Origin: Candidatus Bathyarchaeia archaeon
GTDB lineage: Bacteria > Patescibacteriota > Microgenomatia > PFEM01 > JAFGMK01
DNA length: 64,000 nt
Reading direction: 5' to 3'
NCBI GenBank assembly: GCA_035529595.1
Contig: DATKWK010000023.1
Coordinates: forward strand, 142,961-206,960
How positions within the stretch are numbered: the first letter of the stretch is position 1; every line of letters begins with the position of its first letter. Positions 6,459 through 24,652 of the stretch are shown here, piece after piece. The translations under genes were made by a program, and so were the position numbers. The notes beneath the pieces were generated by a model, which did no database searches, was not told the origin of the DNA, and saw only the letters and a list, made by a program, of their open reading frames with translations.

Positions 6459-6641
6459 TATAAGTTGATGCTTTAGGACGTCACTCTTAGGGTGTAAAAG
6501 TACACCTTCTTATCCGGGTTTTGCTGATCCGGTCAATTATTTTTATCATCTGCTTGGCATCTTTATCAAGAATTCTTCAGTTTTTTCTCTAATACGGTTC
6601 TGATAAGGTATAATACCCGTTTAAGCAGATTTTAAATAAGC

Positions 6642-6779
6642 TACGAGTTTCGTACTTTAATTTAAACCAGCCTATTTGTCATCCTGGAGGGTCGATACTT
6701 CGACCCGATAGGATCTCAAAACAAAAAAAGAGATTCTATCGCTGACGCTCCAGAATGACAGACAACTGCGAAACTCGTG
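6642..6779. mobile_element. 138-bp MITE-like structured element in the ABC-F 5' leader
   Basis: Terminal inverted repeats CTACGAGTTTCG (6642-6653) and CGAAACTCGTG (6769-6779), flanked by TAAG on both sides (6638-6641, 6780-6783). Nested internal stems: 6677-6689 with 6748-6760; hairpin GGGTCGA-tact-TCGACCC at 6689-6706; 6706-6717 with 6730-6741. The paralogous leader at 22297-22322 has the same flanks with a single TAAG and no element. Confidence 0.5.
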
Positions 6780-6792
6780 TAAGCGCACAATT

Positions 6793-8274
6793 ATGATTAT
6801 CGTCAAAGACTTATTTTTTTCTTTCGGCGAGAAACCTCTTTTTTGCGGGGTAGATTTTATTGTGGGAAAAGGACAAAAAGTAGGTTTGGTCGGCCCGAAT
6901 GGTTCAGGAAAAACGACGCTTTTTAGGCTTCTTAGCAGAAAAGAGATGCCGGATGGAGGAACTGTTGAGACTGTTGGTGAGGTCGTTTTAGTCCCGCAGG
7001 AAATTAAATACGATCAGGAAATGGAAGAAAGCCGTTCAATAAGAAAATACCTGGACAAAAACGACGAACATAAAGATTTTGAGCTTTTAAGACTACTCCA
7101 TTCTCTTGATCTTGATGATTTGGATCTAAAATCTTCAGCTTGGCGTTTAAGCGGTGGACAAAAGACAAAAATGGCTTTGGCTAAAGCTTTACTTGACGAG
7201 CCCGATATTCTACTACTTGACGAACCAACCAATTTTATGGATTTCAAGGGAAAAAGGTGGGTGATGAATTTTTTAAGTAAATATCCCAAAACGTTAGTTT
7301 TGGTTTCTCATGATCTCAAGTTGCTGGACGAAGCGATTGACCGGGTTTTATATATCAATCCTCAAACTCATAAGATCGAGGAGTATAAAGGAAATTACTC
7401 AAAGTTTATCAATCTTAAAGAAGAAAAAGAGGCATTGTTAAAAAGGCAGATAACGGCTGAGCAAAAACACATAAAAAGGTTGGAGGAGAGTTTAAAGATA
7501 CTTTATCGATATACTTCCAAAAAAGGAGTAAGGGCCAGAGTTATGCTGCAAAGAAGAATTGCCAGATTAAAGGAATCACTGCCTGACTTACCGCTAGAAG
7601 TCAGACGAATTAAAGTAAAATTGCCAACTCCTTTACCAACCGGAGAGCTGCCGATCCGTGCGGCCAGTATCAGTAAATCATTTGGTAAGAATGAGGTTTT
7701 TAAAAATATTAACTTTTCGGTCATGAAAGGAGAAAGGGTGGCTTTAATCGGGCCAAACGGTGTTGGCAAAAGCACTTTGATAAAAATTCTTGTCGGTGTT
7801 TTAAAGTCGGATAGGGGAAAAGTTACCAAAAACGATAACTTAAAAATCGGCTACTATTCGCAGGAGTTTGAAACTCTCGATCCGGAAAAGACACTGCTTC
7901 AGACAATTAGAAACGGATGCCATCAGGCAGAAGCATTTGCCCGGCCTTTTTTAGGACGGTTTAACTTCTTAAAAACTAAAGTATTTCAAAAAGTGAAATA
8001 TCTATCGGGTGGGGAAAAAACCCGTTTAGCAATTGCTCTGCTGGCCGGACAGGATTTTAACCTGCTTGTTCTGGACGAACCGACAACTTACCTAGATCCG
8101 CTCTCCCAAAGAATTATTTTAAATACTTTAAAAGAATACCGGGGAACGATGATTATCGTTAGCCATACCCGGGAATTTATTTCCGAGCTAAAACCAAACC
8201 GGGCTTTCTTGATGCCGGAAAATAAAATGGTTTTCTGGTCGGATGAGCTATTAGAGAAAGTAGCTGAAGTATAA
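6793..8274 (+). CDS. ABC-F family ATPase (two ABC domains, no TMD; EttA/ARE-like translation factor)
   Basis: Walker A GPNGSGKTT and GPNGVGKST. Two signature motifs LSGGQKTK and LSGGEKTR. Walker B LLLDEPTN and LVLDEPTT. Tandem nucleotide-binding domains with a linker. Confidence 0.85.
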   Translation: MIIVKDLFFSFGEKPLFCGVDFIVGKGQKVGLVGPNGSGKTTLFRLLSRKEMPDGGTVETVGEVVLVPQEIKYDQEMEESRSIRKYLDKNDEHKDFELLRLLHSLDLDDLDLKSSAWRLSGGQKTKMALAKALLDEPDILLLDEPTNFMDFKGKRWVMNFLSKYPKTLVLVSHDLKLLDEAIDRVLYINPQTHKIEEYKGNYSKFINLKEEKEALLKRQITAEQKHIKRLEESLKILYRYTSKKGVRARVMLQRRIARLKESLPDLPLEVRRIKVKLPTPLPTGELPIRAASISKSFGKNEVFKNINFSVMKGERVALIGPNGVGKSTLIKILVGVLKSDRGKVTKNDNLKIGYYSQEFETLDPEKTLLQTIRNGCHQAEAFARPFLGRFNFLKTKVFQKVKYLSGGEKTRLAIALLAGQDFNLLVLDEPTTYLDPLSQRIILNTLKEYRGTMIIVSHTREFISELKPNRAFLMPENKMVFWSDELLEKVAEV

Positions 8275-8301
8275 AACAAAACTGGCAAGCAGGAACTGTA
8301 A

Positions 8302-19972: not shown

Positions 19973-20491
19973 TTACTTTCCAAGGTGCGTTGGGGTGAAA
20001 CTGAAAGGCAAAAGAATCTTCAGCGAGGTTACAGCCAGAGGCCTGCCTTCGGGATCGACATCAATTACTAAGGCATTATCGCAATGTTCCACAGTTTCCT
20101 GTCGACAAGCACCGCAAGGAGCTGACTCTCCAGAATGGCAAACAACTAGGGCGACAACGAACTGGCGTCCATTTCCTGCTTCACCTTCGTTTATGGCTGT
20201 ATTGATAGCATTACTTTCCGCGTGTCCAGTTTGTGAATAACTCACCACTTCCGTATTCGCGCCTGCGTATATTTCTCCAGAAGAACAAAGAACGGCTGCG
20301 CCGACGGGGTAGCCAGAGTAAGGAACGTAAGCATTAGACCTAACTTCTACAGCCGCAGCAATAAGTTCCAGTAGTTTTTCTTCTCCAATCCTTTCAATCT
20401 CCGATGCTATCCACAAACGCTCTGTGTCGATTTCATCTGGGGACGGAACCTTAATTGCATCTCGAATATTTGTTAGAGACTCTATTCCCAT
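19973..20491 (-). CDS. cdd: Cytidine/deoxycytidylate deaminase family protein (small, tetrameric-Cdd-like)
   Basis: Zinc-binding HAE (GHAESNAI) and PCGACRQ motifs. LLPFSF C-terminal region. The locus looks G/C-richer than its surroundings. Confidence 0.7.
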   Translation of the reverse strand: MGIESLTNIRDAIKVPSPDEIDTERLWIASEIERIGEEKLLELIAAAVEVRSNAYVPYSGYPVGAAVLCSSGEIYAGANTEVVSYSQTGHAESNAINTAINEGEAGNGRQFVVALVVCHSGESAPCGACRQETVEHCDNALVIDVDPEGRPLAVTSLKILLPFSFTPTHLGK

Positions 20492-22235: not shown

Positions 22236-22322
22236 TTCTACATAAAGAGCGGAATGTCGTCATACCGACACCGGATTATGCCCTTTTTGAAGTTTAGGCA
22301 GATTTTAAATAAGTGCCTAACT

Positions 22323-22406
22323 ATGATTAAAGTCAAAGATTTATTTTTTTCTTTTGCGGAAAAAGCTTTTACTTTAGAATTGCTGAAAAAAGTAGCTGAG
22401 GTATAA
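22323..22406 (+). pseudogene. Remnant of a second ABC-F paralog: first about 17 codons fused directly to last about 8 codons (internal deletion of about 1.4 kb)
   Basis: ATGATTAAAGTCAAAGATTTATTTTTTTCTTTTGCGGAAAAAGC parallels the start of the 6793 gene. ...TTGCTGAAAAAAGTAGCTGAGGTATAA parallels its last codons (LLEKVAEV*). The upstream leader GCAGATTTTAAATAAG is also shared. Confidence 0.65.
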
Positions 22407-22483
22407 AGCTGCTTCAGTCTGGTTGAGAAAAGTGTTATTAACAACTTTAAGAATTTTTAGCTGACCAAGAGATTAAAAAGAAA

Positions 22484-22876
22484 ATGGATTTGCTGATTAA
22501 GGTTGGTTCGGATTATTTGGAAGTCGGACAGACACTTGATACTTTGTCCGGCGGTGAATCGCAAAGATTAAAATTGGCCAGCCGATTGCAGCGACAGGGC
22601 GAGTTTTATATTTTGGATGAACCGACTTCCGGCTTACATTTTGCCGATATTGAAAAATTATTGACCTTGTTTAACCGATTAGTTGATAACGGTAATACCG
22701 TCTTGATTGTGGAACATAATCTTGACGTGATTTAAAATGCCGATTGGCTAATTGATTTAGGACCGGAAGGAGGAGTAAATGGAGGCAGGCTTATCGCTCA
22801 GGGAACACCGGAAGATGTTAGCAAAGTAGCCGATTCTTATACCGGTCAATACTTAAATGAAACAGCTGGAAATTAA
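22484..22876 (+). pseudogene. uvrA: uvrA C-terminal fragment (about 130 aa) with in-frame TAA at 22733-22735
   Basis: [16 protein letters not shown]...[19 protein letters not shown]...[26 protein letters not shown]...GTPEDV reproduces the UvrA second ABC signature/Walker B/H-loop and C-terminus. There is no upstream approximately 800-aa portion. The stop replaces a conserved Lys. Confidence 0.7.
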
Positions 22877-22877
22877 G

Positions 22878-23443
22878 ATGCATAAAAAAATTGCTAAAAA
22901 GATCTATCTTTTGTTGGAGTTACTGGCCAAAGGCGGTAGTTCAGTGATTCTCAAAAGTAAACAAGAATATGAAATTATGACTTTAGACTTAACCACATTG
23001 GTTTTTGTTACCCGGTTTCTTCTTTGAAAAAAGAGAAAGATGAAATTACCCTTGAAGCGCGTCAAAAAGCCCTTGCTTTATATCAGCTAGACTCGAATAA
23101 TAATACTCCCTGGTGGTTTATCGGAGATATTACCAATTGGCGCGATTCCATGCTTGAAGCCTTGCCGGTTGAAGGGAAAATCGAGGACCGGGAAAAAGGC
23201 TATTGGTTGCCCCATATTCATTTTGATTTTGATACTAATTTAGTTTATGAAGATATTGAGCAAATTAGCCATCGGATTTTTAAAGGGACAAGAAAATTAA
23301 CGCCTTTGGTTTACGACGGTTTTGTTACTCAAGCCAGGTTGTGGCAAGGCGTTATTAGCGGTGTTAATATCCATTTGGATTTAGGCACGGCAGCCAGAAA
23401 CACCAGGTATGTTAGAAAGGTAATGCTAACCAAAATTAAGTAG
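22878..23443 (+). pseudogene. Hypothetical gene split by a 1-nt frameshift at a T/A homopolymer junction (about 23019-23031)
   Basis: ORF 22878..23027 (MHKKIAKKIYLLLELLAKGG...) and ORF 23024..23443 are in adjacent frames. Adding one T to CTTCTTTG fuses them (...FLLLKKEKDEI...). Function unknown. Confidence 0.35.
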
Positions 23444-23581: not shown

Positions 23582-24652
23582 ATGAGTCTTTCTGTCGGGA
23601 TAGTCGGGCTGCCGAATGCAGGTAAGTCGACTCTTTTTAATGCTCTGTTGGGGTGTCAGATTGCCGAAGTAGCCGAACGTCCCTTTACCACGATTGAGCC
23701 AAATACGGGCGTGGTTGTCATCCCTGACTCGCGTCTTGAAAGGTTAGGACAGTTGATTAAGCCCGAAAAGTTAGTGTCGGCAACTATCAAATTTATCGAT
23801 ATTGCCGGTCTAGTCAAGGGTGCTCATAAGGGAGAGGGTTTAGGTAATCAGTTTCTATCCCAGATACGATTCTGTGATGCAATTCTTCATCTGGTACGGG
23901 CCTTTTCTAATCCACGCGTTGTCCGTCCCGAAGAAAGTCTTAATCCGCTGGCGGATGCCGAAATCGTTAATTTGGAAATGGCCTTGGCTGATTTGGAAAT
24001 CGTCGAGCGAAGTTTGATCGAAGCTAAAAAAAAAGCCCGGGTTAACTCGGACATGGCAGCGTTGGTCGGGGTTCTTGAAAAAATTAAAGCCGCACTCGGT
24101 AAAGACCAGGTAACTATCAGAACTCAGTTGACAGATGAAGAAAAAGAAATAATCAAGGAGCTTAATTTGCTGACCTTAAAGCCAATGATTTATATTTTAA
24201 ATGTTGATGAGTCCGGCCGGGGGCAGGATAAGAATCTGCCTTCATCTTTTCCAGTATTAGAAATTTGTGCTGCTTTGCAAGCTGAATTAACCGGTCTTGA
24301 AAATAGTGAGAGGCAAGAATTTGCAGGTGAATTTGGTTTAGAAGAGGGAGCTTTAAACCAGCTGATAAAAGAGGCCTATCAATTGTTGGATTTGATTACT
24401 TTTTACACTATTAAGGGTGGTAAAGAAGTTCATGCTTGGCCGATTAGAAAAGGCACCAAGGCTGTTGTCGCCGCCGGGCAGGTTCATACTGACATGGCCC
24501 GAGGCTTTATCAAAGCGGAGGTTATCAATGTCGATCAATTATTATCAATCGGTAGTTGGCAAAGGAGCAAAGAATTAGGAAAACTGCAACTGCAAGGTAA
24601 AGATTACAAAGTTACCGATGGCGATGTAGTCGAATTTAAGTTCTCCAATTGA
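23582..24652 (+). CDS. ychF: Ribosome-binding ATPase YchF (Obg-like GTPase family)
   Basis: GIVGLPNAGKSTLFNALL G1 motif, NxxE-type G4 region and C-terminal TGS domain (...VHTDMARGFIKAEV...). Confidence 0.85.
   Translation: MSLSVGIVGLPNAGKSTLFNALLGCQIAEVAERPFTTIEPNTGVVVIPDSRLERLGQLIKPEKLVSATIKFIDIAGLVKGAHKGEGLGNQFLSQIRFCDAILHLVRAFSNPRVVRPEESLNPLADAEIVNLEMALADLEIVERSLIEAKKKARVNSDMAALVGVLEKIKAALGKDQVTIRTQLTDEEKEIIKELNLLTLKPMIYILNVDESGRGQDKNLPSSFPVLEICAALQAELTGLENSERQEFAGEFGLEEGALNQLIKEAYQLLDLITFYTIKGGKEVHAWPIRKGTKAVVAAGQVHTDMARGFIKAEVINVDQLLSIGSWQRSKELGKLQLQGKDYKVTDGDVVEFKFSN

Follow-up and report, generated by a model that had tools for sequence, protein, structure and literature searches.

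What is the 138-bp structured block that stands between the leader and the start codon of an intact ABC-F gene in the 64-kb stretch of contig DATKWK010000023.1 analysed here (hereafter the window), and does it serve the gene that it precedes? The block occupies positions 6642-6779 and ends 13 nt before the ATG of the gene, which lies on the plus strand (6793-8274) and encodes a protein of 493 aa. An initial annotation, made from the letters of the window, had proposed a mobile insertion that may also act as an attenuator-like regulator. We conclude that the block is very likely a miniature inverted-repeat transposable element (MITE), a DNA transposon of the non-coding, non-autonomous kind, which has the ends of ISAba11-type IS701 insertion sequences and was probably moved in trans by a transposase of that type. 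It belongs to a mobile repeat family, it is absent from the orthologous and paralogous leaders, and its ends and duplication length match those of IS701/ISAba11-type elements.

The window holds its own comparison for this locus. The 16-mer leader GCAGATTTTAAATAAG is common to two ABC-F loci on the plus strand, at 6625-6640 and at 22298-22313 (direct sequence reading, blastn). At the first it is followed by the 138-nt block, nine similar bases and then ATGATTATCGTCAAAGA..., and at the second by nine bases and then ATGATTAAAGTCAAAGA..., such that the ATGATTA... start of ABC-F lies 9 nt past the shared site at both loci (ATG 6793 with the block discounted, ATG 22323). As the initial annotation stated, the extra 138 nt are restricted to the first of the two. 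A blastn comparison of the loci finds 21/22 identical positions in the leader, 79% identity over 61 nt from the last bases of the leader to about codon 16 (6780-6840 against 22310-22370), and 95% identity over the last 19 nt of the gene (8257-8275 against 22389-22407). Because leader, 5′ end and 3′ end all match, the second locus is a true ABC-F remnant from which nearly the whole gene has been deleted; about the first 20 codons are fused to the last 6 codons and the stop (22323-22407, plus strand; blastn and translation). Its uninterrupted, or empty, site (22298-22322, plus strand) reads GCAGATTTTAAATAAG, TGCCTAACT, ATG, with one TAAGT in place of TAAGC-element-TAAGC. The filled and empty sites reported for the window are both present in this sense, with the difference that the empty one is paralogous rather than allelic and is about 20% diverged in the adjoining coding sequence.

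A mobile element is expected elsewhere, and copies were found in other genomes. We scanned 185,579 genomes, one per prokaryotic species, with the pattern ACGAGTTTCG-N100-130-CGAAACTCGT, built from two 10-nt end motifs, and obtained 67 loci. Thirty-nine of these share one architecture, in both orientations: end-repeat, spacer, TGTCATYCYG, short hairpin, GRATCT ... AGATYC around an AT-rich centre, short hairpin, CRGRATGACA, spacer and end-repeat. About 30 of the 67 are unrelated matches, including tandem CGAAACT repeats in Alcanivorax; the calculated chance expectation is 17-30. The family copies are hosted by Curtiss-, Gottesman-, Levy- and Roizmanbacteria, WWE3 and other Patescibacteria metagenome-assembled genomes (MAGs), some of them in numbers (JBBTXS01, at least 13 near-identical copies; CAZAJT01, 7; JACPEV01, 5). 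A profile of the family recovers the block at 6642-6779 as its sole match in the window (nhmmer, E = 2e-17). On these matches the repeat family is spread through Patescibacteria (Microgenomates lineages and WWE3), and a Saccharibacteria copy has the same ends with a different interior.

The flanks of the copies carry the signature of transposition. With the element taken as Y-ACGAG...CTCGT-R, exact 5-bp direct repeats flank 21 of the 39 copies and a further 7 copies have such repeats with one mismatch (about 0.04 exact cases expected by chance). Any other offset or length yields at most one matching copy, save a 3-bp window nested in the same 5 bp. The duplications vary by site (for example ACAAT, TATCG, AGAAT and GATGG), and the window copy obeys the same rule, with TAAGC at 6637-6641 on its left and at 6780-6784 on its right. 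The flanking repeat, annotated as the 4-bp TAAG, is actually one base longer. With the end motif recurring at many unrelated sites in related genomes, and with duplications of fixed offset and length, the proposal of a MITE-like insertion is borne out.

The terminal inverted repeats, conserved across the 39 copies, are TACGAGTTTCGTA (6642-6654; family consensus CACGAGTTTCGCA) and TGCGAAACTCGTG (6767-6779) in the window copy. They had been described as near-perfect repeats of 11-12 bp; the repeats are there, but measure 13 nt and are complementary at 11/13 positions, the remaining two being T opposite G. The alternative local hairpin TACGA-gtt-TCGTA noted in the left repeat can be read in the window copy, but it needs two T's that are specific to this copy and differ from the family consensus.

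We also looked for the family beyond species genomes and for further copies near the first. The subfamily pattern gave five loci in JGI metagenomes, two of which are duplicates of known loci. Viral contigs gave a single chance match and no family member. Long-range pairs of end repeats in the examined loci are adjacent MITE copies or solo ends flanking ordinary genes, except in Arsenophonus (L049), discussed below. A segment at 20121-20147 of the window, 27 nt long and 89% identical to 6741-6767, was considered as a further copy; it lies in coding sequence with no end repeats nearby and was judged a chance match. Spread of the MITE to Gammaproteobacteria was likewise considered and rejected. 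The MAG CAZAJT01, labelled ‘uncultured Gammaproteobacteria binchicken_co251_706’ (copies L008, L015, L018, L045, L047, L055 and L056), has an FtsH that is 75-82% identical to Roizmanbacteria proteins, and therefore is a mislabelled genome of the candidate phyla radiation (CPR). This label check covered CAZAJT01 alone; L007, L017, L023, L026, L039 and L071 also bear a Gammaproteobacteria or Pseudomonadales label.

The CACGAGTTTCGC ends also bound elements of comparable length but unrelated interior in Collierbacteria (L006, L044, L060, L067), Gottesmanbacteria (L033) and Saccharibacteria (L043). Exact 5-bp duplications flank the different-interior elements in L033 (GTGTC) and L043 (TTAAT). The same ends and duplications on different interiors suggest that several CPR MITE families share one set of transposase-recognition ends. 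A search of the accessible literature returned no paper with the end motif and none on MITEs in Patescibacteria, and the repeat family seems to be undescribed so far.

The block is strongly structured. RNAfold gives the plus strand as RNA a minimum free energy of −59.1 kcal/mol, compared with −31.5 ± 3.8 for shuffled sequences (z = −7.3; 0/200 shuffles as good), and reproduces the nested stems of the initial annotation: an outer stem, a second stem between TGTCATCCTGGAG and CTCCAGAATGACA, a 7-bp hairpin and an 11-bp hairpin. The minus strand as RNA (z = −6.6) and the sequence as DNA (z = −7.6) fold about equally well, so the structure is a property of the inverted-repeat DNA rather than of a single transcript.

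Such a fold raises the question of whether the block might be an ancestral cis-regulatory leader, a riboswitch or attenuator, that was precisely deleted from the remnant. The stability of the fold and its position in the 5′ untranslated region (5′ UTR) would suit that origin, a deletion could also run via short direct repeats, and the empty site is paralogous and diverged. The leaders of the three closest ABC-F orthologs (L002, L003 and L004; 65-68% identical), a comparison that had been proposed as a check, speak against it: gaps of 7, 61 and 91 nt precede ABC-F there and the element is absent. Dozens of unrelated sites carry homologous copies, in either orientation and with site-specific 5-bp duplications, and tblastn found no ABC-F gene near any of them. 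No Rfam 15 family covers the element at gathering score, where the only match in the window is one tRNA; at E ≤ 10 the sole match in 6500-6900 is a spurious long non-coding RNA that ends at 6636, upstream of the element. Together with the symmetry of the fold between strands, these observations make an ancestral leader barely credible.

An allelic empty site would speak to the same point. Its predicted junction is ...AAATAAGC joined directly to GCACAATTATG, across 6641/6642 and 6779/6780. The exact 27-mer is absent from JGI metagenomes, where the filled site is absent too, which makes the result uninformative and suggests that this collection does not contain the window organism.

Which transposase, then, could have moved the element? 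The end consensus of the MITE family, CACGAGTTTCGCACTTT (13-17 bp), is also that of insertion sequences of about 1.06 kb, with matches of up to 17/17. The first lead came from Arsenophonus (L049), where the end repeat lies beside a truncated transposase open reading frame (ORF) that matches NCBIfam NF049921 (IS701 family) at E = 2e-69. In Piscirickettsia salmonis, a plasmid carries an insertion sequence of 1064 bp (L073 771-1834) with the ends CACGAGTTTCGCACTTTGA and TCAAAGTGCGAAAGTCGTG and with CTGGA on both sides, and a metagenomic one of 1069 bp (L077 2425-3493) has the ends CACGAGTTACGCACTTT and the duplication GTAGA. Truncated insertion sequences with the same end occur in Arsenophonus (L049) and Ca. 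Megaera (L072). The left end of the MITE copy in L013 is identical to the P. salmonis end at 17/17 positions, and both ends of the window copy match the insertion-sequence consensus at 15/17.

The transposases place these insertion sequences beside ISAba11. The L077 transposase (323 aa) scores 368 bits against NF049921 and the ISAba11 transposase 394 bits (cut-off 250). ISAba11 on plasmid pAB3 (L074 875-1975) has related ends, TAGGACTTACGCA, that match the consensus at 10-12/17 positions, and its duplication, CATAT, is 5 bp long. Rieck et al. reportedly described, in 2012, a 5-bp direct repeat as typical of the ISAba11 group. ISAba11 is a member of an emerging IS701-related family with 13-bp inverted repeats (PMC7519801), and classical IS701 members are 1.4-1.55 kb long with 4-bp duplications (2008 IS4/IS701 survey, PMC2266710). 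Because the classical members are longer and have 4-bp duplications, the relation concerns the ISAba11-type branch only. As far as we can tell, the link between the MITE family and ISAba11-type insertion sequences is new.

These comparisons brought several further observations on the insertion sequences. In Arsenophonus triatominarum, a 190-bp element with the same ends cuts the IS701/ISAba11-type insertion sequence (L049 6973-7795) short at 7605/7606, and another such element, of 130 bp, lies at 2053-2182 of the same locus; in a symbiont from the Proteobacteria, too, these ends therefore enclose short non-coding elements. On the P. salmonis plasmid, the 22-mer AATCTACTGCTCACACTGTGAG is found on both sides of the insertion sequence (L073 741-770 and 1840-1861), 8 nt upstream and 5 nt downstream, and the insertion sequence may sit in a local repeat or tandem arrangement, with the CTGGA duplication still present. 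The 323-aa ISAba11-type transposase has 4,401 metagenome clusters at E ≤ 1e-20, mostly on isolated contigs of about 1.06-1.2 kb, as expected of a high-copy repeat that breaks assemblies. Where its hosts are named, they are Proteobacteria with an intracellular or symbiotic way of life (Piscirickettsia, Caedimonas, Fukatsuia, Arsenophonus and Megaera).

Based on these ends, the element was probably mobilised in trans by an ISAba11-type transposase. A DDE transposase of the IS701/ISAba11 type, supplied in trans, would bind both ends, excise the element and insert it at a staggered 5-bp cut, and repair of the cut would yield the TAAGC duplication. Of the two ABC-F paralogs, one received the element in its short leader, 13 nt before the start codon; the other, later reduced to a remnant, retains the uninterrupted site. 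We infer that a transposase of this type moves the family within Patescibacteria.

The interior of the element is less easily accounted for than its ends. Past the first 17-19 nt or so, nothing in the insertion-sequence ends corresponds to the interior of the MITE, with its TGTCAT core and hairpin units. The element has the same ends, yet does not represent one of the observed insertion sequences with a simple internal deletion. The core of 32 distinct copies contains four pentamers (ATYCY, RGRAT, ATYCY and RGRAT). In the window copy these are ATCCT (6681-6685) in the conserved core arm TGTCATCCTGGAG (6677-6689), AGGAT (6710-6714) and ATTCT (6733-6737) in the central hairpin GATAGGATCTC / GAGATTCTATC with its A-rich loop (6707-6740; RNAfold and family alignment), and AGAAT (6752-6756) in the conserved core arm CTCCAGAATGACA (6748-6760; family alignment). 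Between the first two pentamers lies the variable hairpin module GGGTCGA-tact-TCGACCC (6689-6706), and other copies have different short hairpins here; the inserts between pentamers are in general short GC-rich hairpins that differ or are swapped between copies.

Two ways of pairing the pentamers can be compared across the family. Local pairing, first with second and third with fourth, is perfect for 56 of 62 and involves five pair types; shared ancestry of the copies inflates such counts, and we take the covariation as a lead rather than a result. The long-range pairing adopted by the minimum-energy fold of the window copy, in which 6677-6689 pairs with 6748-6760, is perfect in just 13 of 62. 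Within the closest subfamily, no compensatory changes were found in the minimum-energy stems, which are invariant. The interior is made up of two inverted hairpin units, apparently kept as hairpins.

This organization invites two other readings of the block. One would have it as a hairpin repeat moved by a single-strand transposase or nuclease, in the manner of REP/RAYT or IS200/IS605 elements, or as a small structured RNA gene spreading in some other way, with the shared ends a coincidence. Two inverted units whose stem pentamers covary, and loops with swappable GC-rich mini-hairpins, do resemble hairpin-recognised elements more than a typical deletion derivative. REP/RAYT and IS200/IS605-type elements have neither target duplications nor terminal inverted repeats, however, and the family has exact 5-bp duplications together with inverted ends of 13-17 bp that are identical to those of DDE-type IS701-family elements of the same duplication length. 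No tnpA, tnpB or RAYT-like gene was noticed beside the copies, although no systematic search for them was made. We consider this origin highly improbable.

The second reading keeps the IS701/ISAba11-type ends and supposes that the interior is a selected module, such as a platform bound by a host or transposon protein or a stabiliser or insulator at the RNA level, that Patescibacteria disseminate it through their small genomes, and that the copy at ABC-F rewired the expression of a ribosome-protection factor. The covarying stem pentamers and the swapped mini-hairpins keep this reading open, and we hold it to be unlikely.

Several observations count against the MITE interpretation or against parts of it. 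No second copy occurs in the 64-kb window by blastn-short, single-sequence nhmmer or family-profile nhmmer. With about 70-73% identity to L081, L013 and L066, its nearest known relatives, the window copy may stem from an old insertion and be inactive. Since the empty site belongs to a paralog, the remnant could, in a formal sense, have lost the block precisely. Searches with four transposases (tblastn) detected no IS701-type transposase gene, either in the window or across some 0.5 Mb of copy-bearing Patescibacteria loci, and full-length insertion sequences with these ends were found solely in Proteobacteria or on unassigned short metagenomic contigs; names in the transposase clusters are of Proteobacteria only (Piscirickettsia, Caedimonas and Fukatsuia), and two longer contigs with the insertion sequence are apparently non-CPR or unassignable. 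Finally, a plain deletion-derivative model fails to explain the paired hairpin units of the interior. We nevertheless take a MITE with ISAba11-type ends as the best explanation of the block, given its family, its duplications and its absence from the related leaders.

If the block is an imported MITE, what does it do to the gene? A TATAAT hexamer at 6609-6614 on the plus strand is, by direct reading, a possible −10 box of the ABC-F promoter; a consensus scan found no full −35/−10 pair on that strand. If this box is used, transcription would start near 6621 and the whole element would lie in the 5′ UTR, which would measure about 170 nt with the element, compared with about 30 nt before the insertion. 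The upstream unit ends in a terminator-like hairpin at 6514-6532. None is present between 6620 and 6792, the nearest being this one and another at 6834-6851, inside the gene.

With its 138 bp the element falls within the size of MITEs (less than about 600 bp), and it encodes little. Its only ORFs are one of 13 codons on the plus strand and one of 44 aa on the minus strand that crosses it, and there is no transposase gene. The former is the upstream open reading frame (uORF) MTDNCETRVSAQL (6755-6796, plus strand), present as the initial annotation described it. Its ATG lies in the ATGACA motif of the core arm at 6748-6760 and is the ATG of the family-wide motif GAATGACA; its frame runs through the right end repeat, and its TGA overlaps the ATG at 6793 as ATGA. 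The end repeat has a stop codon in no forward frame, and the string CETRV is the translated end repeat, found also in ORFs that cross the repeat in Arsenophonus. The uORF ATG is base-paired within a stem and has no Shine-Dalgarno sequence before it. Because the TGA lies in the flank, outside the element, the ATGA overlap is a product of the insertion site and not of the family. We judge the uORF to be a by-product of the insertion, as far as its sequence tells.

These features bear on whether the insertion, once made, was co-opted, such that the structured 5′ UTR and the uORF now tune ABC-F translation, for example by coupling to ribosome traffic as in antibiotic-sensing leaders of ABC-F resistance genes. 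Co-option would add to the MITE origin rather than replace it. Ribosomal-protection-like ABC-F genes are often under leader-peptide attenuation, and the gene here is intact and of that kind. The element lies between the only TATAAT-like box and the ATG, the uORF stop overlaps that ATG, and a stable outer stem would keep the 5′ UTR compact. On the other hand, the uORF ATG and the open frame through the end repeat are family-wide features, the uORF has no ribosome-binding sequence and a paired ATG, no terminator-like hairpin lies between 6620 and 6792, all other copies lie away from ABC-F genes, and short leaders without structure suffice for the orthologs and the paralog. The window copy is indistinguishable from neutral insertions elsewhere. 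We find co-option unlikely, and the earlier proposal of an attenuator-like regulator finds no support in these results or in the lack of an Rfam match. The strong fold, the uORF and the ATGA overlap would follow from the inverted-repeat design and the landing site rather than from an evolved attenuator, and the MITE is probably transcribed in the ABC-F mRNA, and any effect on expression would be tolerated, not adaptive.

The ABC-F protein belongs to a ribosomal-protection-like subfamily (NCBIfam NF000355; 396.9 bits, cut-off 380). Its closest homologs, at 60-68% identity, all come from Patescibacteria MAGs (Microgenomates, Woese-, Davies- and Levybacteria), and the ‘Candidatus Bathyarchaeia’ label on the protein (P0001) is contradicted by these relatives. 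The MAG of L013 (DATKWX01) and L082 bears the same wrong label, and both loci carry a related MITE copy. The window itself lies on a metagenomic contig of 275 kb.

The surroundings of the remnant differ from those of the intact gene. The segment 22292-22880 is a small graveyard of gene fragments, in which the ABC-F remnant has on its 3′ side the C-terminal part of a UvrA-like gene, interrupted by an in-frame stop (about 22460-22880). At the ortholog locus L003 the gene order is ABC-F, a 417-aa gene and YchF; in the window, YchF (23582-24652) has the remnant upstream of it instead of the intact gene. Given this order, the intact, MITE-bearing copy may be the relocated one.

The locus offers a clear, self-contained case of recent-style transposon activity in CPR bacteria, whose reduced genomes are usually thought to be poor in mobile DNA. 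Ends, core motifs and 5-bp duplication now define the family, which lets annotators mask its copies and not mistake them for a riboswitch or leader. The family is tied to the ISAba11-type branch of IS701, whose other known hosts are Acinetobacter and intracellular Proteobacteria, and this raises the question of the place of the transposase in Patescibacteria. For the ABC-F gene itself there is a warning, in that its structured 5′ UTR and uORF would be imported and not an evolved antibiotic-sensing leader.

Among known systems, the element is close to ISAba11-type insertion sequences by its ends. The two share the terminal inverted repeats (up to 17/17) and the 5-bp duplication; the insertion sequences are about 1.06-1.1 kb long with a transposase gene, whereas the MITE has 138 bp and none, and their interiors have no similarity to that of the MITE. 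Hosts differ as well, those named for the insertion sequences being Acinetobacter, Piscirickettsia salmonis, Arsenophonus, Ca. Megaera and Caedimonas, and those of the MITE being Patescibacteria. The attenuator leaders of ABC-F genes (vmlR, msr, vga and lsa) and the uup RNA motif, which Rfam includes, likewise combine a 5′ UTR position, a short ORF and stable stems. The window element differs in that it has no terminator/anti-terminator pair, no conservation in orthologs and no Rfam match, and in that its family sits at sites unrelated to ABC-F. From REP/RAYT and IS200/IS605-type elements it is set apart by having both terminal inverted repeats and target duplications.

There is a likeness, too, to bacterial MITEs such as Correia of Neisseria, RUP of Streptococcus and MITEAba12 of Acinetobacter, which are small, non-coding and multicopy, with inverted repeats, a target duplication and ends shared with insertion sequences. 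Copies of such MITEs are often intergenic and can lie in 5′ UTRs, where they fold into stable hairpins. The window family differs from them in its sequence, in the indicated partner, which is of the IS701/ISAba11 type and not of the IS5, IS30 or IS630 type, and in an interior made of two covarying hairpin units. The element thus seems to be a MITE of the ordinary kind, and the family to which it belongs seems to be new.

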